From Tissierella sp. Yu-01 (GTDB lineage Bacteria > Bacillota > Clostridia > Tissierellales > Tissierellaceae), in contig NZ_CP120677.1 of the NCBI RefSeq assembly GCF_029537395.1, positions 2,108,566 through 2,132,565 of the forward strand: a DNA stretch of 24,000 nt, read 5' to 3'. The notes beneath the pieces are model-generated. The model did not search any database and was not told the origin of the DNA. It worked only from the letters and a program-made list of their open reading frames with translations. The position numbers were made by a program, and so were the translations under genes. This document shows, piece by piece, positions 628 through 23,304 of this stretch. Every line of letters starts with the position of its first letter. The first letter of the stretch is position 1.

Positions 628-2625
628 ATGACAATAAAAAAGAAGTTACTATTATCATCAAGTTTGCTAATCTTATTAGCATTTACTATTATTTTTATAT
701 TTGTTTTAACACAATTTATACAAAGTAATGAAAGGGAAGAATTTAAGTATCTAGATACTTTATCAACTTCCATAATGATGGATTTACAGACGCAGATGGA
801 CAATACTCTAATATCAGTTAAAAGTATGGCAAATAATCCTGACATACAAAGACTTTTTTATGAGCGTAATCGTGAAGGTCTTTCGGATTTATTACTACCT
901 GTATATGAAACAATTAAATCCGAGGTAGCACAATTTCAATTTCACTTACCTGACTCAACATCATTTCTTAGGCTTCATAGTCCAGCTAAATTTGGAGATT
1001 CCTTAAAGGACTTTAGAATCACTGTTAACACAGCTAACGAACAATTAGTTGATGCTATAGGTATTGAAGAGGGTGTTGCAGGATATGGTTTAAGAGTAGT
1101 TGTACCTATGTTTTATCAAGACCAGCACATCGGCTCAGTAGAGTATGGAAATGATTTTGGCACAAATTATGTGAATAATATTAAAGAAAAATTCGGACTT
1201 GAGAATTTTCTATATAGATATCCTTCAGACAATGTAGATGGTAATTCACTTTTAGCTTCAACAATGGAAAATGATGAATACCTGATAAGTGATGAAAATT
1301 ATAATAAGATCCAATTGGGTGAACCAATATTTGAAGTTACCAGGGATCCGAACATTGGTATACTACTGATACCAAATGCTGACTTTCAAGGCGAAATTAC
1401 TTCATATACAAAATTAATTATTGATCGTTCAGAAGTTGTAGCGAGCGCTAAAAACATGAGTACAAATCTATTTGTAATTTTCTTTATTTCACTAATTCTA
1501 ATGGTATTATTATTAAGTACTCTCTTGAATTTTAATGTTTTCAAGCCTATAGCCGCTGTTACTGCTATTATTAATAAACAATCCAATTTAGATTTTACAT
1601 TTGATGAAAAATCTGAGATGTCAAAATATATAAAGCGTGCAGATGAAATTGGTATAATGTCCACAGCTTTATATAAAATGAAAAACAGCGTTAGAGAATT
1701 TATTATTAAAACCTCTGATACCTCAGAGTTAGTTGCAGCTTCAGCAGAAGAGCTTAATGCAACTTCTCAACAATCTGCCATTGCATCAAATGAAGTTGCC
1801 AAAGCAATCGAAGAGATTGCAAATGGTGCAAGTGAACAAGCTAGAGATGCAGAAGTTTCCTTTTCTAATGTAGAAGATATGGAAACATTACTTGAAAAGA
1901 ATAGACAGTTTCTTGATGAACTAAATAATGCAACAGATAACATTAATAATCAAAAAGAAGCAGGATTTCAAATCCTTAAAGAATTAATACAAAAGACAAA
2001 TCAAAACAATGAAGCGTCTCAAATAGTTTATGAAACTATAGTTAAGAATAATGAAAGTGCTGAAAAAATTGAAGCTGCGAGTGAAATGATTAATAGTATT
2101 TCTGATCAAACCAATCTTTTAGCTCTAAATGCAGCCATAGAAGCTGCTAGAGCCGGTGAATCTGGTAAAGGATTCGCTGTAGTAGCAGAAGAAATAAGAA
2201 AGCTTGCAGAACAGTCGAATAGCTTTACTAATGATATAAAAGTAGTAATAGAAGAGCTTAAATCCAATTCTCAAAATTTATTCGGCAAAGTACAAGAAGT
2301 AGCGTCTATAGTGGATTCTCAAACAGAAAGCGTAAAAGAAACAGAGACAAAATTTATTTTGATAGCTGAAGCAATAGATTTAGTAAGATCAGTTATAGAG
2401 AAGCTTAATGACTCGGAAAAATTAATAAGTGAAAATAAAACTACTCTGTTGAATAATATACAGAATTCAACCTTAATCTCAGAAGAAAACGCAGCAGGAA
2501 CACAAGAAGCTTCAGCTTCCGTAGAAGAATTATCAGCAAATATTGTAGAGATATCTAATTCTAGTGAAGGATTAGCTAGTATAGCAGAAGATTTGCAAAT
2601 ACTGATACAGCAATTTAAGATTTAA
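628..2625 (+). CDS. Methyl-accepting chemotaxis protein (N-terminal TM, extracytoplasmic Cache-like sensor, second TM, HAMP, MCP signalling domain)
   Basis: 665-aa ORF. Two hydrophobic segments (about res 7-29 and 289-311) flank a roughly 250-aa sensor region. The C-terminus carries the conserved MCP hairpin motif [49 protein letters not shown] lies upstream. An extended -10 TGaTATAAT sits at 587-595. Confidence 0.92.
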
Positions 2626-6200: not shown

Positions 6201-6440
6201 ATGTTTACTACAATTCAAAAGTGGGGTAATAGTCAAGCCGTTAGAATACCTAAGGCTATTCTAGAAATGGCTAATCTAAGGGAAAATGACAATGTAGAAT
6301 TAAGAGTTCATGAAGGCAATCTACTAATTATTCCTGTTAAAAAACATAAATCCCTAGAGCAACGAATTGCCGAATATGAAGGAGAATACCATTGTAGCGA
6401 ATGGGAAACTAGTGATCCTATAGGAAAAGAGGTACTATAA
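6201..6440 (+). CDS. mazE: MazE/PemI-type antitoxin (AbrB/SpoVT swapped-hairpin fold)
   Basis: The sequence MFTTIQKWGNSQAVRIPKAILEMANL... carries the classic KWGNS.A.RIP antitoxin motif. RBS GAGAGGTGA lies upstream. The stop overlaps the toxin start (TAATG). Confidence 0.9.
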   Translation: MFTTIQKWGNSQAVRIPKAILEMANLRENDNVELRVHEGNLLIIPVKKHKSLEQRIAEYEGEYHCSEWETSDPIGKEVL

Positions 6441-6772
6441 TGACATATATTCCAGAACAAGGAGATATTATATTTATAGAATTTAATCCTCAGGTCGGGC
6501 ATGAGCAAAAAGGTAAAAGACCGGCCTTAGTTGTAAGTAATTACACATTTAACAAATTCACTAAATTGGCAATGCTATGCCCAATTACCAATACGGATAG
6601 AAGCTTTCCTTTGCATGTTAAACTAGATGAAAGAACGAAAACTACAGGAGTCATCATGTGTGAACAGGTAAAATCCCTAGATTACAATGCCAGAGCAATA
6701 TCCTTTTATGAAAGATCACCAGAAGATATAGTAGCAGAAGTTAAAGATGTTTTACTTGGATTCATTGAATAA
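6440..6772 (+). CDS. mazF: MazF/PemK-type endoribonuclease toxin
   Basis: 110 aa: YIPEQGDIIFIEFNPQVGHEQKGKRPALVVS...CPIT...DQVKSLDY-like motifs align by eye with E. coli MazF/ChpB. Confidence 0.9.
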   Translation: MTYIPEQGDIIFIEFNPQVGHEQKGKRPALVVSNYTFNKFTKLAMLCPITNTDRSFPLHVKLDERTKTTGVIMCEQVKSLDYNARAISFYERSPEDIVAEVKDVLLGFIE

Positions 6773-8975: not shown

Positions 8976-9218
8976 CTATTCGTTAGCAAAGTTTTTTGTT
9001 ATTGAAACCCTCCATACTTCAGGACCTTCCTCAAGGTATTCCCAGTTGAAGAAACCTTCTCTTTCAGCTTGGAATTGATAATATAATGGCTTTGGATCAT
9101 GGTCGTTTATCAATTCCATCTTTTCACCTTTGCCAAGGGAATCAAATGTTTCAAAAATTACTCTATGTTTATCTACTGGCTTATATTCTCTAGCATCAAC
9201 TGTTTTTGCAAATACCAT
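8976..9218 (-). CDS. DUF2249 domain protein
   Basis: 80 aa. The stretch ...HRVIFETFDSLGKGEKMELINDHDPKPLYYQFQAEREGFFNWEYLEEGPEVWRVSITK matches the DUF2249 pattern as I recall it (..G..l.l..dHdP.PL...l.......w.y...gP..w.v.i.k). RBS AAAGGAG lies upstream. Confidence 0.7.
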   Translation of the reverse strand: MVFAKTVDAREYKPVDKHRVIFETFDSLGKGEKMELINDHDPKPLYYQFQAEREGFFNWEYLEEGPEVWRVSITKNFANE

Positions 9219-9558: not shown

Positions 9559-10143
9559 TTATATGGTAGTTATTGTAACCTCATTACTTAGTTTCATATT
9601 TATTGCAATAGCCATCAATGAACAAGCTATCACAAAAAATGCTCTATATTCCTGTCCAAAAACTAATAGTAGAATTTCCAAAAATAAGACCAAGGTAATA
9701 ATTTCGTTTTTCTTTCTACTACACCTTTCTATTTCACTGGCTGTTTTAGGTCTGTTTATATTAACTATTGAATCTGTTAGATATATTTTGATGACAGAAT
9801 AAATTAGAGAAATTATTCCTATTATCAGTTGCATTTGCTTTGAAAATATTATCGCAGGAACTATAATAAGTATGTATACCAGCATTGTTAACATCAGGCA
9901 TTTACCATATGTTTTACAGTGGAATCCCCCCGTATATCTTTTTACAGATATAAAAACCACCATAAATATAATGGTAAACTCTATAGTTTCTAGTAAAGTT
10001 CCTGCGAGTAATAGCAACAATATAGTAATTAGATTATTTAACAGTAATTCTAATCCATAGGAACATATATCAATATCTTCCTTTTCTATTATCTGATTTT
10101 GTTCTAATAAAAAAACTATGCTATTTATAAGTTTCTTTAGCAT
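9559..10143 (-). CDS. agrB: AgrB-family membrane endopeptidase (AgrD-processing enzyme)
   Basis: 194-aa polytopic protein. The motif VKRYTGGFHCKTYGKC carries the conserved R..GG.H-x6-C catalytic His/Cys pair with the same 7-residue spacing as S. aureus AgrB H77/C84. RBS AAGGAGG lies upstream. Confidence 0.88.
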   Translation of the reverse strand: MLKKLINSIVFLLEQNQIIEKEDIDICSYGLELLLNNLITILLLLLAGTLLETIEFTIIFMVVFISVKRYTGGFHCKTYGKCLMLTMLVYILIIVPAIIFSKQMQLIIGIISLIYSVIKIYLTDSIVNINRPKTASEIERCSRKKNEIITLVLFLEILLLVFGQEYRAFFVIACSLMAIAINMKLSNEVTITTI

Positions 10144-10156
10144 CTTTGATGCCTCC

Positions 10157-10359
10157 TTAATTTATAAATAGCATAGCATATGTTTTATTTGTTTTTTGTT
10201 TTTATGTTAAACTGGTAGCTTTTTTGGTTAAACTCGTAATATGTAAATTAATTGTTCTTAAATATTTGATGAATCTAATAAATTTAAATAAAAATTCTAT
10301 TTATAAGTCATGTATCCCAGACCTATAAATAGCATAGAACATATCTCCCCAGCATTTAA
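10157..10359. repeat. About 203-bp repeat, copy 1 (promoter module plus upstream flank), paired with 11986-12189
   Basis: The two copies align by eye over their whole length with scattered mismatches. Each runs from just upstream of the downstream gene's RBS to the stop codon TAA of the preceding ORF. Confidence 0.8.
10206..10238 (-). promoter_or_regulatory. LytTR-type direct-repeat boxes (copy A) upstream of agrB
   Basis: Plus strand: GTTAAACTGGTA-gcttttttg-GTTAAACTCGTA. On the minus strand this reads TACGAGTTTAAC-N9-TACCAGTTTAAC, with a 21-bp period. The conserved extended -10 TGcTATGCT (complement of 10170-10178) lies 27 nt downstream. Confidence 0.65.
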
Positions 10360-10565
10360 TCCTGCTCACTGGAAGAATTCTTATTAATTGTTGCAATAAT
10401 AAAAATTAAGCTGCTAATATTTAGGGCAATTAAAAGGTAAAGCGAGTATACTAACATTGCAATATCACCTAGAGGTGATGTAATACTAGTCATTAATAAA
10501 AGCAAAATAAACGAAATAAAAAATCCAGTCAATAATGAAATAATTCCTAACATAAAAATTATCAC
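10356..10565 (-). CDS. Small membrane protein (69 aa, two hydrophobic helices)
   Basis: RBS AGAGGAGTG lies 8 nt upstream. A TATAAT hexamer (complement of about 10635-10640) sits between it and the upstream terminator, so it may have its own promoter. Confidence 0.55.
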   Translation of the reverse strand: MIIFMLGIISLLTGFFISFILLLLMTSITSPLGDIAMLVYSLYLLIALNISSLIFIIATINKNSSSEQD

Positions 10566-10656
10566 TCCTCTTGTTATGATCTTGCAAGAATTTGTTCAGT
10601 CATTGAATATCGATACGGTATTTCTACCACTAACATTATAATAGCATTTATGTAAT

Positions 10657-10693
10657 AAAAAGGAAACCCGTTTTAAAATAAGTTTCCTTTTTT
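10657..10693 (-). terminator. Terminator after the 312-aa gene
   Basis: AAAAAGGAAAC-(14 nt)-GTTTCCTTTTT, with T-runs on both strands. Confidence 0.7.
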
Positions 10694-10711
10694 AGTCAAT
10701 AGTAATTTTAT

Positions 10712-11650
10712 TTATCTTATTCTTACTCTTTCTCCATAATCTCTAGAATGAATATAATAATCATCTGGATTCATAGTTTTAACAGAGTGTACAGGCTCAA
10801 AACTTAACCCAAGATCATCAGGGCTTACTGATACAGACGGATGTGCGCTATAAGTTGAATGACCATATCGGATTACCATAGCCGCTTCTGGAACCCTACC
10901 TGATTTTGTAAATGCACAGTATGCTCTTCCTCTCATTGCATAATATGATCCCTCCCGTAAGTCAAATGTAGTTTCCATAGCATGAATTTCATCAGTTGGA
11001 TAGAAATCATATATTTCAGTATTTCGATCGTCATCGACATCATAGTAATAAATTCTATGATATGATAAGTCATCATCAAAATACATACCCTCACTTACTA
11101 CAGCACCAATGATATCCGTTTTTGTTACTACAGGCATCACATCCCATTCCCAGTCAAAGCGTACTCTAAATGTTGTTGTTCTATCATCTCGATCATATTC
11201 ATGTCTGCTAAAATGTACTTCGCAATATAAATCTGAAAATATTCCCTGAATTGACACATCAGTGCCATCGTAATCCTTAATCTTTTCAATTCTCTCTTTT
11301 GTATAACCAAGCATTTCTAATTCTTTATCGCTTTTATTTTTTAATTCAATTATTATATTATCAACATCAAACTCTTTAATTTTTTTTATATCAGCTGAAC
11401 TCAAACCTTGTTGTCTTAATGTAGCTTCGCTTTTTTTCTTCAAGTTCATTAAGGCATCATACTCATTCACCTTAAAACTGGTTATAAATTTGTCGTAACC
11501 ATTTTCTGCCGCAATTTCATCTTGTTTAATTAGCTCCTCTCGGCTTAGACTTTTTAATGTAGGCATGCTTTCTGCATAAGTAGTAACTGGTGTTGCAAAT
11601 ACTATTAACGTAAATACAGCTAAAAGTAAAGATAAGATTTTTTTCTTCAT
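10712..11650 (-). CDS. Secreted protein of unknown family (312 aa), cargo of the agrD1 operon
   Basis: Signal peptide MKKKILSLLLAVFTLIVFATPVTTYA/ES. An internal duplicated helical motif is present (QGLSSADIKKIKEFDVD / MLGYTKERIEKIKDYDGTD). The C-terminal half is rich in D, Y and R. The start lies 18 nt after the agrD1 stop, with RBS AAGGGAG. Confidence 0.8.
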   Translation of the reverse strand: MKKKILSLLLAVFTLIVFATPVTTYAESMPTLKSLSREELIKQDEIAAENGYDKFITSFKVNEYDALMNLKKKSEATLRQQGLSSADIKKIKEFDVDNIIIELKNKSDKELEMLGYTKERIEKIKDYDGTDVSIQGIFSDLYCEVHFSRHEYDRDDRTTTFRVRFDWEWDVMPVVTKTDIIGAVVSEGMYFDDDLSYHRIYYYDVDDDRNTEIYDFYPTDEIHAMETTFDLREGSYYAMRGRAYCAFTKSGRVPEAAMVIRYGHSTYSAHPSVSVSPDDLGLSFEPVHSVKTMNPDDYYIHSRDYGERVRIR

Positions 11651-11668
11651 AATAACAAACTCCCTTCA

Positions 11669-11830
11669 TCATTTGTTTTTAATGGGTAACTTATCAATCT
11701 TCTTCCTCAACTTCTCCGACATCTTTGGTTCATAAAAATAGAATACTGACATTGTATTTGGCGAAGTTGCTGCTGACTTTATTGATGCCTTTGCTACTGA
11801 TTCTAAAATGTTTTTTCTAAAGTTTTTCAT
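11669..11830 (-). CDS. agrD: AgrD-family autoinducing-peptide precursor, paralog 1 (53 aa)
   Basis: Hand translation: MKNFRKNILESVAKASIKSAATSPNTMSVFYFYEPKMSEKLRKKIDKLPIKNK. It has an amphipathic N-terminal leader, a short hydrophobic core and a YEPKM.EKL tail resembling the clostridial AgrD recognition motif. RBS GGGGGTGA lies upstream. It is below the ORF-track size cut-off. Confidence 0.75.
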   Translation of the reverse strand: MKNFRKNILESVAKASIKSAATSPNTMSVFYFYEPKMSEKLRKKIDKLPIKNK

Positions 11831-11985
11831 GCTATTTCACCCCCATTTTTATATTAATTGCAATAGCATTAATTAGTTTGCTATTACAAAAGCATATACT
11901 ATGTGCATGTCCAAATCTTAGGTAAATAAATTTATTAAATAAAAAAAGCTATTTTATAAGATTCAGCATCTTAGTCGATACTGCA

Positions 11986-12189
11986 TTAACTTACAAATAG
12001 CATAGCATGTATTTTCTTGATATTTTAATTTTATGTTAAACTGGTAGGTTTTTTGGTTAAACTGGTGATATGTAAATTAATTTCTCTTAAATATCGGATG
12101 TATCTAATAAATTTAAATAAAAAATGCTATTTATAAGTCATGCATTTCAAACATAAAAATAGCATAGAACATATCTCCCCAGCATTTAA
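11986..12189. repeat. About 204-bp repeat, copy 2 (paired with 10157-10359)
   Basis: See copy 1. It contains the promoter module for agrD1. Confidence 0.8.
12035..12067 (-). promoter_or_regulatory. LytTR-type direct-repeat boxes (copy B) upstream of agrD1
   Basis: GTTAAACTGGTA-ggttttttg-GTTAAACTGGTG with a 21-bp period. The extended -10 TGcTATGCT is conserved downstream. A leader of about 160 nt precedes agrD1. Confidence 0.65.
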
Positions 12190-12304
12190 CTTTGATTACT
12201 TAAACTATCTATCATTAAACACTTTAACTCATAAAAAAGATAGAATACTAACACTATATTTGGTGGAGATTCTACTTTATCTTTAATAAATAATTCTGGA
12301 AATA
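12188..12304 (-). pseudogene. Decayed third agrD copy
   Basis: The DNA aligns with agrD1 (tagaatactRacaYtRtatttgg...). The reading frame gives ...PELFIKDKVESPPNIVLVFYLFYELKCLMIDSLSNQS*. There is no start codon (an in-frame TAA lies just upstream), the ring Ser is replaced by Leu, and the EP motif is lost (YELK). Confidence 0.55.
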
Positions 12305-12308
12305 TTAG

Positions 12309-12600
12309 TTATTTTTGACAAAAACACCCATATGAGGTATATGCCAATACAATATTAAGGATGTAAGCTGCTTTTTCTAATAACCCACTTTCTTCTAGTT
12401 CATAACTCGCTTTCTCATTTCTTAAAATATATAGAGCAATTAACGTTAATACTACTATTATTTTAGAAATTATCGACACCCATAACTACAATGGCAGCAA
12501 GGTTTCCTAGTTCCGTCAAGTTTATCCTTGCTCCATATGATATGGCCAGATACAATACAAATGATGTCAGAATTACTGCAAAAATTGTTTTACCTATTAA
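12309..12600 (-). pseudogene. Frameshifted small membrane-protein gene lacking a canonical start
   Basis: A good RBS AAAGGAG is followed by TTAATAGGT with no ATG, GTG or TTG. The first frame (..IGKTIFAVILTSFVLYLAISYGARINLTELGNLAAIVVMGVDNF*) continues in the +1 frame (IISKIIVVLTLIALYILRNEKASYELEESGLLEKAAYILNIVLAYTSYGCFCQK*). Confidence 0.4.
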
Positions 12601-12624
12601 CTTATATCTCCTTTAAATTTGTAA

Positions 12625-12676
12625 CTTACAAATAGCATAGCATATGATTTAATTGTTTTTTTATGTTAAACTGGTA
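12625..12676 (-). promoter_or_regulatory. Truncated promoter module (copy C): conserved -10 region plus a single LytTR-type box
   Basis: acaaatagcatagcatatg...atGTTAAACTGGTAattc. The second box is absent, and homology ends at 12676. Confidence 0.45.
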
Positions 12677-13122
12677 ATTCATCCTTAGATTTAAGTCAGG
12701 AAGAAATAAATAACCTTTTGGTGGACTTAGGAAATGAAGTATTTGAGAATAAAGATTACGAGAATAATCTTGATTCAATAGTTGAAAAAGTCTTTAGAGA
12801 ATTTGGAATAGAAGGTTCTTCCAACTTGGATGCTGCAAAGTCTAGAATTAAGGTATCTAAATCTAATTTTAAATAGTAACGCAATTTTAAATTAACACAT
12901 TTATACTAAGAGCATGATTCTTTGTTTTATTTTGAGGAATGGGATACTAGAAGACAAAGGCGAAAACTGGTAACGATCTATCAACATCTTAGACATTGAT
13001 AGATAAAATTTGTATTCCATTTTGTTAGAGATTTTCAATTTACAATTGTTCTTTTTCATTATAATAGATAACGAATGAACCCATAACTGCAATAGCAGTG
13101 GGATTTCAGTAAGCGTTTAAAA

Positions 13123-13159
13123 TACAATATGCTCCCTTATTTTAGGAGAGCATATTGTA
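13123..13159 (-). terminator. Terminator of the agrD2 operon
   Basis: TACAATATGCTC-(13 nt)-GAGCATATTGTA, followed on the minus strand by TTTT. It lies 86 nt after the stop of the 88-aa gene. Confidence 0.55.
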
Positions 13160-13245
13160 GGTATATTTCACTTGTTTATTATATATGTAACTTGTTCTAT
13201 GACTCTTTATAAGAGCTTAGGATACTGCAGAAATGTCGTTGATAA

Positions 13246-13512
13246 TCAAGCAAGTATTAACAATGTTCCAATAATCCAAACTGCAGCAACTACAAGTAAA
13301 CTCTTTAAATTGACTTCATTTGATATAGTTCTCCGTTTTAACTCTGTAATAAAGATAATCCCCATCGTAGCTGAATAACTTATCAACTCATAAATATTAC
13401 TATATTTAATTATAAGCTCCTTTGATTTGTTGATAAATGTATCAAACCAAATAAAGTTTAATAACAAAGCTATTATTAAAATGAATATTAAAGAATTATA
13501 TGCTTTATTCAT
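13246..13512 (-). CDS. Small three-TM membrane protein (88 aa), last gene of the agrD2 operon
   Basis: RBS AGAGGAG overlaps the end of the upstream gene (stop at 13527), implying coupling. Three hydrophobic segments are present. Confidence 0.7.
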   Translation of the reverse strand: MNKAYNSLIFILIIALLLNFIWFDTFINKSKELIIKYSNIYELISYSATMGIIFITELKRRTISNEVNLKSLLVVAAVWIIGTLLILA

Positions 13513-13526
13513 ACATCTTCTCCTCT

Positions 13527-14192
13527 TTAATATCTACCATCCCACTCTTCCACTAATTTTCTGTACGAAGAATCTTCATAGATTCTTACCCAAGGTTTTA
13601 CTTCAGGTCTAGAAGTAGTTATAGGATCTTTATAATATTCACGTTTTACATACCAGTATTCATCTAAATAATTCTCAAGTATTCTTTCAGCAAATATTAT
13701 GAGTACTGGTGCTACAACACCTGAACCTAAAACCATGCCTAAAACTGTAACAATAGCCGTTAAATCGCGGACTTCAACAGCTACCCTACCTTGATCAGTA
13801 TTAAAAAGCACCCATTTATGCCCAGCGGCCAACCTATTACTCAATTCAAGGTTATTTAGCTCTTCATAAGTTCTTTCTGGAGATATTTTAGCAACAACAT
13901 CACCATTTAATGTCACAATACCGCTAACCTTATCATACTCAGTTATATAACTCTTAGCAATTGTTCTCCTTAATGTTGAGCTTTCGTAATATTCAAACTT
14001 AGTAGGTTCACCATCAATAAGCAGTACATTATATCCTATATACTCAAGTTTATTCGTTAGTTTATCTTTATCTACTATAGACAAATTACTATCTAATGTC
14101 AAATAATCATACTCATCAGAATTAGCAAAACTAGCAGGAACTAGCGTTAACATGATGCAAAAAGCCATAAATACCGATATAAATTTTTTCAT
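13527..14192 (-). CDS. Exported, C-terminally anchored protein of unknown family (221 aa), cargo of the agrD2 operon
   Basis: Signal peptide MKKFISVFMAFCIMLTLVPASFA/NS. A late TM segment (LTAIVTVLGMVLGSGVVAPVLIIFA) is followed by a Y/W/K/E-rich tail of about 50 aa. RBS GAGGGGGA lies upstream. Confidence 0.8.
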   Translation of the reverse strand: MKKFISVFMAFCIMLTLVPASFANSDEYDYLTLDSNLSIVDKDKLTNKLEYIGYNVLLIDGEPTKFEYYESSTLRRTIAKSYITEYDKVSGIVTLNGDVVAKISPERTYEELNNLELSNRLAAGHKWVLFNTDQGRVAVEVRDLTAIVTVLGMVLGSGVVAPVLIIFAERILENYLDEYWYVKREYYKDPITTSRPEVKPWVRIYEDSSYRKLVEEWDGRY

Positions 14193-14252
14193 TAAACTTC
14201 CCCCTCTTATAGTATGATATTGTTACTATTTAACATCCAGTTTTTCATGGTT

Positions 14253-14411
14253 CTATTGCCTTAACCTTGCACACTCTACCTCCTTCCTCAACTTCTCTGG
14301 CATTTTTGGCTCATAAAAGTAGAATACTGACATTGTACTTGGTGAAGTTTCTGCTACCTTTATTGATGCCTTTGCAACTGATTCTAAAATGTTTTTCCTA
14401 AGTTTCTTCAT
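14253..14411 (-). CDS. agrD: AgrD-family autoinducing-peptide precursor, paralog 2 (52 aa)
   Basis: Hand translation: MKKLRKNILESVAKASIKVAETSPSTMSVFYFYEPKMPEKLRKEVECARLRQ. It carries the full YEPKMPEKL motif. RBS AGGAGGTGA lies upstream. It is below the ORF-track size cut-off. Confidence 0.8.
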   Translation of the reverse strand: MKKLRKNILESVAKASIKVAETSPSTMSVFYFYEPKMPEKLRKEVECARLRQ

Positions 14412-14568
14412 GCTATTTCACCTCCTTTTTAACTTAGCAGCATGTCCAAGTATTGAAAAAACAAATTCAATAAATAGAAAATGCTACTTATAGGCCTCTG
14501 CATCTTAATTGATGCAGTTTTAAATTATAAATAGCATAGCATATGTTTTCTGAACTTTTTAATTTTAT

Positions 14569-14601
14569 GTTAAACTGGTAGGTTTTTTGGTTAAACTGGC
14601 A
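14569..14601 (-). promoter_or_regulatory. LytTR-type direct-repeat boxes (copy D) upstream of agrD2; the distal box overlaps the agrC stop codon
   Basis: GTTAAACTGGTA-ggttttttg-GTTAAACTGGC with a 21-bp period. The last agrC codons ..TTG CCA GTT TAA are themselves the distal box. The extended -10 TGcTATGCT is conserved downstream. Confidence 0.65.
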
Positions 14602-15913
14602 ATTCACCATTCAATGATACAGCCATATATAATTTAAACTCTTCATTTAAGACCTCATGATCAATAAATCCGTTATATTTATTTGCTACATCTTCTAAAA
14701 TAAATAGACCATATCCATGGCTATCTTTATCTTTCTTAGATGTAATCCCCCTACGAATTTGTACATCCTTGTTGATACTATTACTTATTTCAAAATTAAG
14801 ATAATCCTTCTTAGGGTTAATAACTATTTCTATCCTTCTCTTAGATTTGTCCTCTATCTTTAAACATGCCTCTATGGCATTATCTATGCTATTAAAGAGC
14901 AGGGAGCTAAAATCCGGTGGATTTATTGGAATATCAGGAGGAATCACTGCTTTTACTTTAAAGGCTATATCATTGTTTACAGCTTCAATTCTCTTTTGAT
15001 TTAAAACCATATCTGCTATTTCATTTCCTGTTCTTATGGTTATAGGAAAGTTATCCATATTCTCTATGATTACGTTGATATACTCATTTATTCTATTATT
15101 TGAACTAGTGGATGCCAGATTCTTAATATTTGCTAGATGATTGTTGATGTCATGTCTTATTTTCCTTATTTCTAAATTTGTCTCCTGATTCATTTTTAAA
15201 TATCTTCCTGTAGCCTTGTAGTGCATATCTAATATTGCTCTTTCTTTTTGTTTGATATAATGTTTGTTTAACTCTGTTAAAAACAGATATACCACCCCAT
15301 TTATAAATAGGAAGGTACCACTGATAAAAATCAAAAGAATATCTAAGCCTTCTACCTCACCAGCTACTCTATTTAGATCAAACAAAAATATCATGCTAAT
15401 AGCTGATATCATATAAATTAGCCATACAAAAAGATTGTATTTTCTGGGTAGAATATTTTTATGAGGCTTTACATACTCCGCTATTATTTTTATCAACTTA
15501 TATTTAATCAACTTAACAATAAGTCCTGTTATTAGTCTAGCTGTTCCGTGCAATAAAACCATTTCAGCAGCAGGTATTTTAAATATAAATCTTAGTAGAT
15601 TCATTGTCAGGATTTCAGCTGCTATTTGGATAAGATTAAATATCAGATTATAGAATATCTTATCATTCAAATTACCTTTAAAAAGTAAAGAATATACAAA
15701 ATATATACTAACTCCAATTACCATCCTATAGGATTGTCTAATTTCTAGGATTGTCAGTACAAAAACTACTATAGAAATTAAAAATGACAAAACAACATAT
15801 ACTTTTAACTTTATTTTTTCATTTAGTCCTAATATATGTTTAAAAAACATAGTAAATAATATGGCTTCTACAAAACACCAAAAATACTCAAATCCTAAAT
15901 AAAAATGTTCCAT
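14591..15913 (-). CDS. agrC: AgrC-like (HPK10 family) membrane sensor histidine kinase
   Basis: The N-terminal half of about 200 aa has 6-7 hydrophobic segments. H-box IRKIRHDINNHLANI, N-box LLFNSIDNAIEA and G-box SHGYGLFILEDV are present. There is no HAMP or PAS domain. Confidence 0.85.
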   Translation of the reverse strand: MEHFYLGFEYFWCFVEAILFTMFFKHILGLNEKIKLKVYVVLSFLISIVVFVLTILEIRQSYRMVIGVSIYFVYSLLFKGNLNDKIFYNLIFNLIQIAAEILTMNLLRFIFKIPAAEMVLLHGTARLITGLIVKLIKYKLIKIIAEYVKPHKNILPRKYNLFVWLIYMISAISMIFLFDLNRVAGEVEGLDILLIFISGTFLFINGVVYLFLTELNKHYIKQKERAILDMHYKATGRYLKMNQETNLEIRKIRHDINNHLANIKNLASTSSNNRINEYINVIIENMDNFPITIRTGNEIADMVLNQKRIEAVNNDIAFKVKAVIPPDIPINPPDFSSLLFNSIDNAIEACLKIEDKSKRRIEIVINPKKDYLNFEISNSINKDVQIRRGITSKKDKDSHGYGLFILEDVANKYNGFIDHEVLNEEFKLYMAVSLNGELPV

Positions 15914-15923
15914 CCTGTCCCTC

Positions 15924-16628
15924 CTATGAAGTAAAAAAGGCCTTTTTTACTTCAGATATCTTATATCTTGAAACCTGTAATACTTCCCCATTGTCTAGCT
16001 CAATGGTTTCCTTGTCTATCCTCTTTACAAAGTTAATGTTAACCATCATCCCCCTATAGATACTAACAAATCCTTTACTGGAGACTACTTTTTCTATTTC
16101 TTTGAAAACTGTTATAGTAGTTATATATGTATCTGTTAACGTTCTGATATTGACCCTTCTATTAACCATGTTAAAGTAAAGAATTTCTGAAATTGCCAAT
16201 TTTATAGTTCCTTCTTTTGTTTTAAACTCATATCTTGTACTATTTTCTTGTAACCTTTTTAAAATGTCTTCTAAAACTGCATATATTTCTTCATCAAAAT
16301 ATGATTTCCTGATAAATCTAAAAGTATTAAGTTCAAAGACCTTATATACTTCCTCATCTAAAGAAGTTAAAAATATAAGTATAAAATTATTATCTATTTC
16401 CCTAATTACCCTTGCTGCTTTGATGCCATTCAATCTTGGCATATCTATATCGAAAAATATCACATCATACCCAATACCATTACGTTTTGCTTCTCTAACT
16501 ATTTCTTCCCCATTGTTATATTCATCAATATCAACTTTATTTTGATTATCCCTAAAAAAGGAATTAACTTTTAATCTTAATCTCTCCATAAAAATATTAT
16601 CATCCTCACAAATTGCAACTTTTACCAT
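15924..16628 (-). CDS. agrA: AgrA-like response regulator (REC plus LytTR DNA-binding domain)
   Basis: REC motifs are present (VAICEDD, FFDIDMPRLNG). The C-terminal region of about 100 aa has the LytTR pattern (..ISEILYFNMVNRRVNIRT...FVSIYRGMMVNINFVKRID...LQVSRYK). RBS AAGGAGGGG lies upstream. An extended -10 TGaTATAAT is the complement of 16675-16683. Confidence 0.88.
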   Translation of the reverse strand: MVKVAICEDDNIFMERLRLKVNSFFRDNQNKVDIDEYNNGEEIVREAKRNGIGYDVIFFDIDMPRLNGIKAARVIREIDNNFILIFLTSLDEEVYKVFELNTFRFIRKSYFDEEIYAVLEDILKRLQENSTRYEFKTKEGTIKLAISEILYFNMVNRRVNIRTLTDTYITTITVFKEIEKVVSSKGFVSIYRGMMVNINFVKRIDKETIELDNGEVLQVSRYKISEVKKAFFTS

Positions 16629-16732: not shown

Positions 16733-16753
16733 AAGCTGAGAAAATCTCAGCTT
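16733..16753 (-). terminator. ftsH terminator
   Basis: AAGCTGAGA-aaa-TCTCAGCTT, followed on the minus strand by TTTTTT. It overlaps the ftsH stop codon by 2 nt. Confidence 0.75.
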
Positions 16754-18686
16754 ATTCTTTACCTATATCTATTTTATTTTCTTCTTCAACAACATCTACT
16801 TTATCTTGATCGTCTATGCTATCTTGTATATCTTTATTTCCTTCACTGTCTTTCTTATCTTCTTTATTTAAAAGCTCCATAAATTCAGTTCCTGTTATAG
16901 TTTCTTTTTCAAGAAGATAATTTGATAACTCTATTAGCTTATCTTTATTTTCGGTTAATATTTCTATTGCCTTATCGTAACATTCTTTTACTATTTTTTG
17001 AACTTCTTTGTCTATTAAGGCAGAAGTCTCTGGGGAACAAGCTAGTGATGCATCTCCACCTAGATATTGATTTGTTACGGTTTCTAAGGCAATCATACCA
17101 AATTTATCACTCATACCAAGTCTAGTAACCATTGCTCTTGCAAGTCTTGTTATTTTTTCTATATCATTACTTGCTCCAGAAGTGACGGAACCAAACATAA
17201 CTTCTTCGGCTGCTCTACCACCTATTAAGGTAGTTATCTTATTTAATATTTCTTCCTTGGACATCAATACATTTTCCTGTTCCTCTACTTGCATTGTATA
17301 TCCAAGAGCACCTGATGTTCTTGGTATAATCGTAATCTTAGTAACAGGAGCTGAATCGGTCTGCTTAGCAGCAACAAGTGCGTGACCTATTTCATGATAA
17401 GCAATTATTTTCTTTTCCTTTTCCTGTATAACAGCACCTTTTCTTTGATATCCTGCAATAATAACTTCAACTGATTCAACTAAGTCTGTTTGGTTTACAA
17501 GATTTCTTCCCATTCTAACTGCTCTTAGGGCTGCTTCATTTATTATATTTGCAAGCTCAGCACCTGATGCACCTGCAGTCATCCTTGCAACTTCATTAAA
17601 GTCTATACTCTCTTCCATTTTAATCTTTTTAGCATGAACATCTAGGATAGCTTCTCTACCCTTTAAGTCTGGAAGGTTTACTGGTATCCTTCTATCAAAT
17701 CTACCTGGTCTTAATAAGGCTTTATCAAGTGATTCTGGTCTGTTAGTGGCAGCTAATATTACCACTCCCTTTTTACCATCAAAACCATCCATTTCAGATA
17801 GCAATTGGTTTAAAGTTTGTTCTCTTTCATCATTTCCGCCAAATCCAGCTCCATCTCTCTTCTTACCTATGGTATCAATCTCATCTATAAATACTATACA
17901 AGGTGCCTTATCCTGCGCTTGTTTAAATAAATCCCTAACTTTTGCAGCACCAAGACCAACAAACATCTCAACAAAATCTGATCCTGATATAGAAAAGAAA
18001 GGTACCTTAGCTTCACCAGCAACAGCCTTTGCCAACAAAGTCTTACCTGTTCCTGGTGGTCCAACTAATAATGCCCCCTTCGGCATTGTAGCACCGATAT
18101 CAGCATACTTCTTTGGATTGTGTAGGAAGTCAACTATTTCTACTAAAGCTTCCTTTGCTTCATCCTGACCAGCTACATCCTTAAAGGTCTTTTCATCCTG
18201 ATCCGCTGGAACATATACTTTTGCATTACTCTTACCAAAGGACATTGCATTTCCACCCATACCTTTGGTCATTCTTCTCATTAGCATAGGTCCTAATACA
18301 AAGAACAATACCATTGGAAGTCCTAATGAAAGGAAATAATATAGAAGCGGTGACATTTCTTCAGGTACTATCTTTGTTTGTTTAATGTCTTTCTCAAGCA
18401 AAATATCTACTAAAGCAGGATGATCCATCCTACCTGTTGAGTAATACTCTAATTCCCCACTTTCATCTTTAATTGAGAATTTTATTTCAGTCTCTGTAAT
18501 CTCTACTTCTTCTATATCATTATTTTCAACATGATTTATGAAAGTTGTATAATCTACTTCAGTTATCTTCTTTTGATCAAGTAAACTTGGAAATAAAAAT
18601 CTATTTAACATCATCAATACTACCAGCGATATTAGATAATAAAAAACTATGGGCTTCTTAGGTGTTTGTGATTTCTTCTGATTCAT
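16752..18686 (-). CDS. ftsH: ATP-dependent zinc metalloprotease FtsH
   Basis: Two N-terminal TM segments, AAA+ Walker A GPPGTGKT, Walker B IVFIDEID, the SRH region and the zinc site HEIGHA are all present. Confidence 0.95.
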   Translation of the reverse strand: MNQKKSQTPKKPIVFYYLISLVVLMMLNRFLFPSLLDQKKITEVDYTTFINHVENNDIEEVEITETEIKFSIKDESGELEYYSTGRMDHPALVDILLEKDIKQTKIVPEEMSPLLYYFLSLGLPMVLFFVLGPMLMRRMTKGMGGNAMSFGKSNAKVYVPADQDEKTFKDVAGQDEAKEALVEIVDFLHNPKKYADIGATMPKGALLVGPPGTGKTLLAKAVAGEAKVPFFSISGSDFVEMFVGLGAAKVRDLFKQAQDKAPCIVFIDEIDTIGKKRDGAGFGGNDEREQTLNQLLSEMDGFDGKKGVVILAATNRPESLDKALLRPGRFDRRIPVNLPDLKGREAILDVHAKKIKMEESIDFNEVARMTAGASGAELANIINEAALRAVRMGRNLVNQTDLVESVEVIIAGYQRKGAVIQEKEKKIIAYHEIGHALVAAKQTDSAPVTKITIIPRTSGALGYTMQVEEQENVLMSKEEILNKITTLIGGRAAEEVMFGSVTSGASNDIEKITRLARAMVTRLGMSDKFGMIALETVTNQYLGGDASLACSPETSALIDKEVQKIVKECYDKAIEILTENKDKLIELSNYLLEKETITGTEFMELLNKEDKKDSEGNKDIQDSIDDQDKVDVVEEENKIDIGKE

Positions 18687-18738: not shown

Positions 18739-20043
18739 TTATGAAATAACTTTTTTGTTCAAAATTACACTTATCCTTGTTCCCTCACCTATCTTACTAT
18801 ATAATTCTATCTTACCATTGTGTAAATCTACTATCCTCTTAACAATTGAAAGCCCTAGTCCTGTCCCCTCTGTGCTTCTAGACTTATCAGCCTTGTAGAA
18901 TTTTTCAAAAATTCTCTCCTGATCCTCTTTGTTTATTCCTACCCCTTGATCCTGTATTATAAATTTACATTTATCTTTGTTTTCTTTTAATTCAAGGCTT
19001 ATTAAACCATTACTTGGTGAAAACTTTATGGCATTGTCCAAAAGATTAATCCATATCTGATTTATTAAACCCTTATTACCTTGAATCTTTACCTCTGCTA
19101 GTTGTAGATCTAGCTCTATATTTTTTAAACTCCATTTATTTTCTAATAGTAGCACTGATTTTCTTATCTGCTCATCAAGTCTAAATTCTTCACTGTTAAT
19201 GATATTTTCATTATCCAATTTATTTATAGTTAATATATTTGAAGCCATAGTGGATAACCTTTTTGTTTCCTGAAGAATAATATCTGTATATTCGTCTTTT
19301 ACTTCATCATCACTTGCTGCTAATAGTTTGGTATATCCTTCAATTGATGTTATAGGGGTTTTGAACTCATGTGAAATATCCGAAATAAAATCATTTCTCA
19401 ATATTTCAATAGAGCTCAAATCCCTTGTCATCTTATTAAAACTATCGATTAAATCACCAAGCTCATCTTCTCTTTTATTTTCTAATATTATGTTAAAGTC
19501 ACCTGTTGCAACCTTTTTAGTTGCATCAGTTATTTCTTTTATTGGTTTTACTATCATCTTACCTACGATTAAAAACATAATTGTACCCAATACTGTTGCA
19601 ATAGATGAATTAAGTGTAATTATTTCTCTAACTCTATTAAACATTGAGTGCCCACCAATATCCGATATTATATACATATCGTCAATCTTAGCAATGGCAA
19701 TGGGATACTTGTATAGATTATCTTCATTCAGAATTATACATTTACCAGAATTTATACTTTCCTCTTGTTCAGCTGTTAAATTGTAATTTTCTAAATAACT
19801 TGTGAACTTTATAGGAATTGTTTTATCTTCATATAAACTATTTAAATCACCTTGAGACATTCCATAATTCAAATATAGTTCTTTTGCTTCCTCTACTGAA
19901 GCAATTAAAACTTTTTTCATATCTGAAATAGTCGTCGTCTCAAAATTCATAGCAACAAATAAAGCAGTAAGGATATTACTTGCCAACAATACCAAAATGA
20001 ATATCAGTATTAGTTCTTTATATATTGTTTTTTTCATAATCAA
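18739..20043 (-). CDS. Sensor histidine kinase (2 TM, HAMP, HisKA, HATPase_c)
   Basis: H-box SHEFKTPITSI, N-box LLDNAIKFS and G-boxes DQGVGI / GTGLGLSIV are present. The start overlaps the response-regulator stop (ATGA). Confidence 0.9.
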   Translation of the reverse strand: MIMKKTIYKELILIFILVLLASNILTALFVAMNFETTTISDMKKVLIASVEEAKELYLNYGMSQGDLNSLYEDKTIPIKFTSYLENYNLTAEQEESINSGKCIILNEDNLYKYPIAIAKIDDMYIISDIGGHSMFNRVREIITLNSSIATVLGTIMFLIVGKMIVKPIKEITDATKKVATGDFNIILENKREDELGDLIDSFNKMTRDLSSIEILRNDFISDISHEFKTPITSIEGYTKLLAASDDEVKDEYTDIILQETKRLSTMASNILTINKLDNENIINSEEFRLDEQIRKSVLLLENKWSLKNIELDLQLAEVKIQGNKGLINQIWINLLDNAIKFSPSNGLISLELKENKDKCKFIIQDQGVGINKEDQERIFEKFYKADKSRSTEGTGLGLSIVKRIVDLHNGKIELYSKIGEGTRISVILNKKVIS

Positions 20044-20708
20044 TAAACTCCCTTATATCCTAAACCCCTTACTGTAACTATTTCAAATTGATCAAAGTCC
20101 TTGAATTTCTCTCTTAATCTCTTTATATGAACATCAACAGTTCTTTCATCTACTTCTGCATCATAACCCCATATATCATCAAGTAAATCTTGTCTTGTAA
20201 AGATTTTCTTAGGAAATGATAATAACTTATATAAAAGATAGAACTCTTTTTTAGGCAAGGATATTTCCTGTGTAGGAGTAATAACTTCTAGACTGTCATA
20301 GTCCAATACTATATCATTTACATATAGCTTTTTATCCTCATATATTCTTGCTCTTCTAAGAAGTGCCTTAACCCTTAAAACCAGTTCCTCCATATCTATT
20401 GGTTTAGTTATATAATCATCAATACCCAAATCAAATCCTTGCTTCTTATCAGGATAAGTATCCTTTGCAGTTACCATTAAAATTGGAATAATATATCCTG
20501 AATCCCTTAATTCTTTAGTAAGCTCATAGCCATCCATTATGGGCATCATAATATCTAAAACTATCAAATCTATTTTATGCCTATCTATTACATCTAAGGC
20601 CTCTTCCCCATCACCTGCATGAAAAGTATTGAAGCCTTCTCTTTTTAAATATATATCTACAAGTTTTCTGATATTTTCATTATCGTCTACTATTAATATC
20701 GTATTCAT
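20040..20708 (-). CDS. OmpR/PhoB-family response regulator
   Basis: REC domain (ILIVDDN, LDIMMPIMDG, TAKD) plus a winged-helix C-terminus (..VDVHIKRLREK....IVTVRGLGYK). Confidence 0.92.
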   Translation of the reverse strand: MNTILIVDDNENIRKLVDIYLKREGFNTFHAGDGEEALDVIDRHKIDLIVLDIMMPIMDGYELTKELRDSGYIIPILMVTAKDTYPDKKQGFDLGIDDYITKPIDMEELVLRVKALLRRARIYEDKKLYVNDIVLDYDSLEVITPTQEISLPKKEFYLLYKLLSFPKKIFTRQDLLDDIWGYDAEVDERTVDVHIKRLREKFKDFDQFEIVTVRGLGYKGVY

Positions 20709-21779: not shown

Positions 21780-22070
21780 TATATTCAAAATTATCTAAAA
21801 GTTTTGAAGGAGATAAAAATACTTGATTACATCGGAAGAGAGCTGGTGGTTGGTGCAAACCAGTGTTGTATGGTATATAATAATCACTCCTGAACTGCAC
21901 AGCTGAAATTTTAGTAGGCAATGCCGGAATTATTTCGCCACCGTTATTAGGCTAGAATTATTTGTTGATTCGAAGAGTCAATTTACGTGAGTAAATTGAA
22001 AATTAGAGTGGTACCACGGATAATCCCCGTCTCTTAGGCTTAATGCTTTTGAGTCGGGTTTTTTTATAAT
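21780..22070 (+). promoter_or_regulatory. T-box riboswitch leader (tRNA-sensing transcription attenuator)
   Basis: Ordered conserved elements are present: AG-box AGAGAG (21837-42), distal-loop TTGGTGCAAA (21850-59), GAA-containing specifier region (21892-21900), AGTA box (21913-16), F-box CCGTTA (21941-46), and T-box AATTAGAGTGGTACCACGG (22001-19). The terminator is CCCGTCTC...GAGTCGGG plus T7 (22026-22066). Confidence 0.85.
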
Positions 22071-22110: not shown

Positions 22111-23304
22111 ATGGATAGTTTATTGGCTATTACACTAGTACTTGTTGTATTTGCATTAGGGGACTTTATATCTTTTAAGACTAAGTCCATAGTTTCAATG
22201 ATGTTTGTTGCATCGGTAGTATTTTTAGTAGGATTCTGGCTAGGTATGCCAGCAACTATATTCCAAGATGCTCAATTAACAGGATTCGGTGCACTCATGA
22301 TTGGTTTCTTAATTACACATATGGGAACTCTTTTAAGTTTCGAAGACCTAAAAAAACAATGGAAAACAGTACTTATTGCTTTAGCAGCAGTAGTTGGTAT
22401 AGGAATATTTTTACTATTAGTAGGCTCACCTATATTAGGTAGAGAATATGCAATATCAGCTGCACCACCAATTGCTGGAGGAGTTGTAGCAGCAATTATC
22501 ATGGGAGATGCTGCGGCAGCAAAAGGTTTAGAATCTATTGGGGTATATGTTACTCTTTTAGTAGTAGTTCAAGGTTTCTTTGGATATCCAGTAGCATCAT
22601 ATATGTTAAATAAGGAAGCTAAAAAACTACTTAAGAATTTTGATCCGAGTAAGGCAAAGGTAGCGGCAGTAGGAGCAGGTGCTGGAGTTGGAGTTGCCGA
22701 GCAACCTGTTAAAGCAAAGAAAAAGCTTATACCTACATTGTCAAAGGACTTACAAACACCATATATCCTTCTAGCAAAATTAGGATTAGTAGCTATTTTA
22801 GGCTTTAAATTAGCAGCCCTAACTAATGGAATAGTTCATCAATATGTAATGTGTTTATTTGTTGGAGTTATAGCAAGAGAAATAGGATTCTTAGAAGAAA
22901 ATATTATGACTAAAGCTAATGCTCAAGGCCTAGCAATGGTTGGACTTATGGCAGTAATATTTGGAAACTTAGCAACAGCAACACCAGAGATGATTGCTTC
23001 ACTAGCATTCCCACTTATAGGATCTTTGGTATTAGGTGTTATTGGCATAGGAATATTCGCTGGATTAGCAGGTAAATTATTAAAAATGTCTATTCCAATG
23101 GCAATTGCAATAGGTACTTCTGCTTTATTTGGTTTCCCTGGAACTTTCATTATTTCAAATGAAGTTGCTAATGCAAATGGTAAAACAGAGGAAGAAAGAC
23201 AAATTATACTTGATGAAATATTACCTAAGATGTTAGTAGCTGGTTTTATTACAGTAACAATAGCATCGGTAGTATTAGCAGGTGTTATGGCACCATTAAT
23301 TTAG
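22111..23304 (+). CDS. Polytopic membrane protein, probable amino-acid/metabolite transporter (family not recognised)
   Basis: 397 aa with at least 10 hydrophobic segments. It is Gly/Ala-rich with a central amphipathic linker (KKLLKNFDPSKAKVAAVGAGAGVGVAEQPVKAKKK). RBS AAGGAGGA lies upstream, and it sits directly downstream of the T-box. Confidence 0.75.
   Translation: MDSLLAITLVLVVFALGDFISFKTKSIVSMMFVASVVFLVGFWLGMPATIFQDAQLTGFGALMIGFLITHMGTLLSFEDLKKQWKTVLIALAAVVGIGIFLLLVGSPILGREYAISAAPPIAGGVVAAIIMGDAAAAKGLESIGVYVTLLVVVQGFFGYPVASYMLNKEAKKLLKNFDPSKAKVAAVGAGAGVGVAEQPVKAKKKLIPTLSKDLQTPYILLAKLGLVAILGFKLAALTNGIVHQYVMCLFVGVIAREIGFLEENIMTKANAQGLAMVGLMAVIFGNLATATPEMIASLAFPLIGSLVLGVIGIGIFAGLAGKLLKMSIPMAIAIGTSALFGFPGTFIISNEVANANGKTEEERQIILDEILPKMLVAGFITVTIASVVLAGVMAPLI

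Follow-up and report, generated by a model that had tools for sequence, protein, structure and literature searches.

We find that the window, a stretch of 24,000 nucleotides of Tissierella sp. Yu-01 with a GC content of 31%, contains two precursor genes, agrD1 and agrD2, that would act as two functional AgrD copies in a dispersed agr system and specify one signal with the ring SVFYF. We give this reading, which is drawn from sequence comparison, a probability of about three in four. All genes of the locus lie on the minus strand in the layout agrA-agrC-P-agrD2-cargo ... P-agrD1-cargo ... P-agrB, with a decayed agrD between agrD2 and agrD1. Ser-type AgrD precursors are already known and are common among the close relatives, and the SVFYF system is thus a new example rather than a new kind. 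For Tissierella it supplies a specific signal, with the ring SVFYF, together with the full agr system that belongs to it, and it leaves current views of agr function unchanged.

Two intact agrD genes with a common core

The gene agrD1 (11669..11830, minus strand) was recognized by its open reading frame, its translation, a match to TIGR04223 and its ribosome-binding site, and encodes a 53-aa AgrD precursor (MKNFRKNILESVAKASIKSAATSPNTMSVFYFYEPKMSEKLRKKIDKLPIKNK). The gene agrD2 (14253..14411, minus strand) encodes a 52-aa AgrD precursor (MKKLRKNILESVAKASIKVAETSPSTMSVFYFYEPKMPEKLRKEVECARLRQ) with the core SVFYF and the canonical tail YEPKMPEKL. Both open reading frames are intact and start with ATG, and good ribosome-binding sites (GGGGGTG for agrD1 and AGGAGGTG for agrD2) are found 7-9 nt 5' of the start. 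Over 156 nt (11694-11849 versus 14275-14430), agrD1 and agrD2 are 87% identical in nucleotide sequence. AgrD1 can be divided into a putative amphipathic leader (residues 1-22), an invariant block (S23-M37) that includes the predicted ring (S28-V-F-Y-F32), and a tail (Y33-E-P-K-M-S-E-K-L41). Over leader residues 3-20 the hydrophobic moment is 1.1-1.35 on the KD scale and the mean hydropathy near 0, raw values that are compatible with an amphipathic helix.

The open reading frames at these minus-strand positions lack Cys in the leader and core and, as described in the initial annotation, have the Cys-less core SVFYF in common. In both precursors Ser occupies the ring position and the core holds no Cys. 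The sole Cys of AgrD2 is C47 in the distal C-terminal tail, a part that AgrB would remove. The loss of the second tail Pro in AgrD1, noted in the same annotation, is equally real, as residue 38 is Ser in AgrD1 (TCG) versus Pro in AgrD2 (CCA), a P38S replacement.

AgrD1 and AgrD2 match the NCBIfam model TIGR04223 (quorum_AgrD, titled "AgrD family cyclic lactone autoinducer peptide") with 35.4 and 42.9 bits, respectively, above the curated cut-off of 19, and the open reading frames are therefore not chance occurrences. A Pfam search, which included the staphylococcal-type AgrD family PF05931, returned no family at E<=1 for either precursor, so that their AgrD membership rests on TIGR04223 and the alignment described below. 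The Pfam AgrD model falls short of the clostridial/Tissierella subfamily.

The block common to the two precursors exceeds the ring and extends over S23-P24-x-T26-M27-S28-V-F-Y-F32-Y33-E-P-K-M37, where residue 25 is Asn or Ser. Close relatives with an identical core come only from metagenome-assembled genomes (MAGs) labelled "uncultured Tissierella sp." and from a few metagenome contigs. All of their copies, including a second and a third copy within one MAG, read SP.TMSVFYFYEP(K/R)MP. Across eight coding copies from the window and these relatives, the block SP.TMSVFYFYEP[K/R]M varies at the protein level only at residue 25 and, once, through K36R. We further compared six full-length copies codon by codon, using the window together with three Tissierella MAG contigs. 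In the 15-codon block, copies differ by up to 8 synonymous and 0-1 non-synonymous changes, the latter always at residue 25, and in the 22-codon leader, window and MAG copies differ by 10-14 non-synonymous changes. AgrB, AgrC and AgrA of the MAG loci are 56-59% identical to the window proteins. Read at the codon level, the pattern is one of purifying selection on the block, not of recent copying. This agrees with the initial proposal that selection acts on one signal, since the block is almost free of non-synonymous change amid synonymous changes. Moreover, residue 25 is the sole variable position of the block, so that, if both genes give one signal, the mature peptide would start at T26 or later.

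A third agrD copy (~12186..12290, minus strand; frame translation ..VESPPNIVLVFYLFYELKC.. / ..KDKVESPPNIVLVFYLFYELKC..) belongs to the same repeat family (D6), in which it is 78% identical to agrD1, and has decayed. The ring Ser is replaced by Leu, one residue is inserted, the tail motif is gone and the start codon is absent. Upstream of this copy are a partial promoter module, in which only one AgrA box is present, and small membrane-peptide open reading frames at 12309-12479 and 12463-12555.

A dispersed agr system with repeated promoter modules

The only AgrB in the window is the 194-aa product of agrB (9559..10143, minus strand), which matches PF04647 at 5.6e-31. The gene adjoins neither agrD and lies 1.5 kb from agrD1. 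A BLASTP alignment with S. aureus AgrB (VKRYTGGFHCKTYGKC / IRRHAHGAHAPSSFWC; the numbering of the S. aureus sequence used fits PMC10482373) pairs H75 and C82 with H77 and C84, the catalytic residues of the S. aureus enzyme (PMC10482373). A PDB sequence search with AgrB gave no match. Since S. aureus AgrB is unable to process a Ser-containing AgrD (PMC10482373), the use of Ser in the window depends on an AgrB that is predicted to be adapted to Ser.

The agrC-like gene (14591..15913, minus strand) encodes a sensor kinase with a polytopic N-terminal half, as judged from its hydrophobic segments, and a HATPase_c_5 GHKL domain (PF14501 at 1e-17). This kinase is 59% identical to the kinase of a Tissierella MAG locus (L003). 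The agrA-like gene (15924..16628, minus strand) encodes a response regulator with a receiver domain (PF00072) and a LytTR DNA-binding domain (PF04397). The window thus holds an AgrB with a His/Cys dyad, an AgrC-type HPK10 kinase, a LytTR regulator and paired repeats, as expected of an agr system. The gene order FtsH..agrA-agrC-agrD is kept in three metagenomic relatives (L004-L006), in which the position of agrD2 is orthologous and the box pair described below for agrD2 is likewise found upstream of agrD.

The boxes consist of a 9-bp direct repeat with a 12-bp spacer, as in AgrA/LytTR sites. An exact pair, CCAGTTTAA-N12-CCAGTTTAA, is located at 14569..14599 (minus strand), ~160-190 nt upstream of agrD2, and falls within the promoter that the initial annotation had named at 14569-14601. 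A pattern scan and the alignment of promoter modules place an identical pair upstream of agrD1 (12035..12065, minus strand), and a pair with 1 mismatch is found upstream of agrB (10206..10236, minus strand). Three pairs in the window compare with 0.01 expected by chance. A single promoter-proximal box (12665..12674, minus strand; family D3) marks a fourth, partial module upstream of the small open reading frames and the decayed agrD.

These boxes are part of a promoter module of ~170 nt that is repeated at 10124-10294 (agrB), 11953-12123 (agrD1) and 14487-14657 (agrD2), with the partial module at 12622-12690. The duplicated unit comprises the promoter module and agrD to about residue 44, and a different signal-peptide protein is encoded behind each copy. 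A remnant of the agrB 5' end within the agrD1 and agrD2 modules was also considered and is not established, as the BLAST homology ends just before the agrB ribosome-binding site. A scan for consensus promoters and terminators was uninformative in this AT-rich DNA, with 54 promoter-like sites versus 52 expected. Two further features of the locus were noted. A 14-nt motif, TATGCTATTTATAA, occurs 9 times with up to 2 mismatches (1.8 expected), always inside the agr locus (10117-14538). Three of its occurrences are in inverted pairs ~30 nt apart, one pair bracketing the agrB start codon, and the motif could be an operator or a hairpin of the 5' UTR. The 5' UTR of agrD2 has a more stable fold than shuffled controls (z = -3.4).

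Directly downstream of agrD1 is a gene for a 312-aa signal-peptide protein (10712..11650, minus strand), which is followed by a 69-aa membrane peptide. Directly downstream of agrD2 is a gene for a 221-aa signal-peptide protein (13527..14192, minus strand) that is unrelated to the 312-aa protein. Family, PDB and fold comparisons gave no match for either protein. For the 312-aa protein these covered Pfam, NCBIfam and PDB, along with an AF2 model built from 6 sequences (pLDDT 62) that had no fold match at E<=0.001, and its only homologues are 5 metagenomic sequences. Apart from one weak match, neither protein is conserved at the equivalent place in the relatives. We presume that both are variable secreted cargo induced by the autoinducing peptide (AIP).

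Several other genes and elements were recorded around the locus. A MazF/PemK-type toxin gene (6440-6772, plus strand) and a DUF2249 protein (8976-9218, minus strand) flank it, as does a dCache_3 methyl-accepting chemotaxis protein (628-2625, plus strand). A second two-component pair of the OmpR type (18739-20708, minus strand) adjoins FtsH (16752-18686), and a T-box leader (21795-22037, plus strand; Rfam RF00230, 117.6 bits) is found upstream of an open reading frame at 22111-23304.

Ring nucleophile, cleavage register and end product

Profile searches of 1.84 billion representative proteins and of a 5.8-billion set yielded 108 usable AgrD relatives, which we aligned on the invariant x-[E/Q]-P-K tail. 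Column -5, which holds Ser28, is Ser in 63 and Cys in 42 relatives (105/108, 97%), and no other core column is restricted to Ser and Cys in this way. Because the sample is skewed towards the query, the 58% with Ser at -5 is no family-wide frequency. Among the 52 relatives without Cys within 12 residues of the cut, 50 have Ser at -5, and the Ser-type Cys-less cores include STFLY, SAFLY, SVFIF and SVFYF, among others. One of the exceptions is a C. acetobutylicum-like sequence, whose Cys is found at -6. Column -7 is Ser or Thr in 92% of the relatives, Cys-type ones included. Some relatives (P0016, P0017, P0024, P0031 and P0058 among them) combine Ser at -5 with a Cys in the ring (SIFCF, SFFYC, SRLGC, SLFCF), a combination that makes both the nucleophile and the size of the ring ambiguous.

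The tail columns are similarly constrained, with Tyr or Gly at +1, Glu or Gln at +2, Pro at +3 (108/108), Lys at +4 (107/108), Pro at +6 (103/108) and Leu, Val or Ile at +9. The charged tail in the window, Y-E34-P-K-M-(P/S)-E-K-L41, has the acidic residue at +2, the Pro and the hydrophobic residue at +9. AgrD1 lacks Pro at +6, as do only 5 of the 108 relatives, and may be processed more poorly. The initial annotation had placed Pro at +3 and +6 of the tail and Ser at the position of the ring nucleophile, and had proposed alignment to AgrD relatives as a check. The 108 sequences bear out both placements, with the ring position on Ser28 and the cut before the Tyr of YEPKM.

This register is further supported by characterized systems. 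In S. aureus AgrD, C28 is the nucleophile, the AIP ends with M32, and processing by AgrB requires E34 and L41 (PMC10482373). Residues S28, F32, E34 and L41 of the window precursors correspond to C28, M32, E34 and L41 of that protein, even in number (PMC10482373). In C. acetobutylicum the active peptide is R6T0, a tail-less six-residue ring, which implies cleavage immediately N-terminal to the Tyr of YEPKMPEEL (PMC10301443). Likewise, C. thermocellum has a Ser-cyclized pentapeptide, S25-F29, followed by Y30..P35, that was detected by LC-MS/MS (PMC5322536). It is thus probable, on the evidence of aligned positions, that AgrB cuts after F32 and closes the five-residue ring S-V-F-Y-F on the Ser28 hydroxyl.

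From these features we infer the following course of processing and regulation. AgrB, through its H75/C82 dyad, would recognize the tail Y33-E34-P-K-M-(P/S)-E-K-L41 and cleave after F32, and the acyl group would then pass to the side-chain oxygen of Ser28 to form a five-residue ester (lactone) ring, S-V-F-Y-F. Removal of the leader at or after T26 would release the same signal from both genes with an N-terminal tail of at most two residues. AgrC would sense this peptide, and AgrA would bind the CCAGTTTAA-N12-CCAGTTTAA boxes and activate agrB, agrD1 and agrD2 as well as the secreted proteins encoded after the latter two, resulting in positive feedback.

The end product need not be a lactone, however, and the base-lability test suggested in the initial annotation could therefore fail even with Ser28 as the nucleophile. 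In culture, tail-less clostridial AIPs are homodetic cyclopeptides that arise through a rapid S-to-N acyl shift, and not thiolactones (Molloy et al., 2021; PMC8251862). The transient thiolactone precursor has a half-life of 5.4 min, and a lactone and a lactam have the same mass and cannot be separated by MS/MS (PMC8251862). What becomes of Ser lactones that have no tail, the C. thermocellum (H. thermocellum) peptide among them, "remains to be clarified" (PMC8251862). Applied to the window, a leader cut directly before Ser28, followed by ester formation and an O-to-N acyl shift, would give the all-amide cyclo(S-V-F-Y-F) instead of a lactone. Rearrangement of Ser O-acyl isopeptides at neutral pH is fast when the amine is free. 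We regard this outcome as a serious possibility, though not as the expected one. The nearest characterized peptides, R5T0 (PMC5322536) and R6T0 (PMC10301443), are both tail-less, in line with such an outcome. On the other hand, oxygen esters donate acyl groups less readily than thioesters do, and the literature searched holds no report of a rearranged Ser-type AIP. In every SVFYF-type copy, T26 and M27 are conserved as strictly as the ring itself, which fits their membership in the mature peptide, and a lactone should persist where Met or Thr-Met is left on the N-terminus. That argument is weakened by column -7, where the Ser or Thr also found in Cys-type relatives may be a processing signal only.

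We put forward more tentatively a wider version of the rearrangement, in which tail-less Ser lactones of the Tissierella type would undergo the O-to-N shift, here to cyclo(SVFYF), and the signal would be encoded by several cassettes of AgrA box and agrD placed before different, fast-evolving secreted proteins. If true, this would be the first demonstration that Ser-type AIPs end as homodetic cyclopeptides, like Cys-type ones, and the cassettes would hard-wire signal amplification to the output genes.

A different nucleophile or register is very improbable. Thr26 could in principle close a seven-residue ring, T-M-S-V-F-Y-F, as the frequent Ser or Thr at -7 would allow, or a cut after Y33 could give the six-residue ring S-V-F-Y-F-Y, of a size known from the C. 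acetobutylicum group (PMC10301443). In the Cys-type relatives, however, Ser or Thr at -7 coexists with Cys at -5 and is not the nucleophile there, and the group with six-residue rings has its Cys at -6 and is still cleaved before the Tyr of YEPK (PMC10301443). The strict alternation of Ser and Cys is seen at -5 only, and we rejected both the Thr26 nucleophile and the six-residue ring on this column and on the cut before the YEPK Tyr. Least credible of all is that the Cys-less peptides stay uncyclized, as relics, decoys or precursors of linear peptides; the decayed third copy does show that agrD copies die in this locus, and AgrD1 has lost its Pro at +6, but the core and tail are under strong purifying selection in the six full-length copies compared above, the ribosome-binding sites and AgrA-box promoters are intact, as are AgrB, AgrC and AgrA, and the decayed copy itself illustrates the effect of lost constraint (Ser replaced by Leu, an indel, no tail).

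Comparison with known autoinducing peptides

A Ser28-closed five-residue ring, the structure that we favour for the AgrB product, has several counterparts. Lactone AIPs had initially been taken to be documented only for the S. intermedius group, and this view does not hold, given GBAP of E. faecalis (PMC12312760), the C. thermocellum peptide (PMC5322536) and about half of the sampled relatives. It is textbook knowledge that the bond which AgrB makes from the C-terminus to Cys or Ser is a "thiolactone or lactone" (PMC11953309). AgrDs of the Ser type, which presumably form lactones, are thus no staphylococcal oddity and are the majority state among the sampled members of the clostridial/Tissierella subfamily, in a sample biased towards the query.

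The AIP of S. intermedius/pseudintermedius has a four-residue exocyclic tail. It was reportedly the subject of work by Ji et al. in 2005. Like the ring predicted here, it contains a five-residue Ser lactone that is made by an AgrB/AgrD pair (PMC12312760, PMC10482373). It differs in its staphylococcal-type AgrD with another tail motif, in its compact agrBDCA operon and in its distant host. GBAP of E. faecalis (FsrD/FsrB) is also a Ser lactone formed by an AgrB homologue, as we propose for the window, but its ring has nine residues within an 11-residue peptide and its genes form an fsrBDCA operon (PMC12312760).

The C. thermocellum (Hungateiclostridium/Acetivibrio) precursor Clo1313_2818, whose product is R5T0 (Verbeke et al., 2017; PMC5322536), has Ser at the ring position, as here. 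Compared by published positions, S25..F29|Y30..P35 and S28..F32|Y33..P38 follow the same S-x-x-x-F|Y..P design (PMC5322536). The C. thermocellum peptide is a predicted lactone of which the cyclic pentapeptide was found by LC-MS/MS (PMC5322536). Its agrD is an orphan gene whose surroundings lack agrB, agrC and agrA (PMC5322536), in contrast to the full system and duplicated precursor in the window.

Two Cys-based clostridial systems are related in other respects. The C. acetobutylicum AgrD (P0019) has a tail, YEPKMPEEL, that is almost identical to the one in the window and is cut before the same Tyr, and its active synthetic peptide is tail-less. It carries Cys at -6 and forms a six-residue thiolactone ring, in contrast to Ser at -5 here. 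The cAIP of Ruminiclostridium cellulolyticum (PMC8251862) comes from the clostridial AgrD family, is tail-less, and serves as a model for a possible rearrangement after AgrB in the window. Its precursor uses Cys, for which the S-to-N shift has been demonstrated (PMC8251862), whereas the O-to-N equivalent at Ser is hypothetical. With its defined promoter, the complete system of the window would offer a convenient model for the question, raised by Molloy et al. (2021), of whether a tail-less Ser lactone persists or becomes a lactam.

The literature searched contained no relevant paper on the ring strings SVFYF, STFLY and similar ones, and no paper among those returned, by searches that did not name the genus, dealt with agr signalling in Tissierella. 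Within the genus, the AgrDs of Tissierella pigra and Tissierella sp. MB52-C2, known from annotation alone as "cyclic lactone autoinducer peptide", belong to the same subfamily. They are Cys-less with Ser at -5 and the tail YEPKAP, and their ring is STFLY versus SVFYF here. The agr genes of T. pigra (GCA_018917845.1) are dispersed as in the window: agrB is ~2 kb downstream of agrD, from which it is separated by the gene for an uncharacterized 401-aa protein, and agrCA is on the opposite strand. A closely related metagenome contig (L007) also carries two agrD copies, both with an identical STFLY core.
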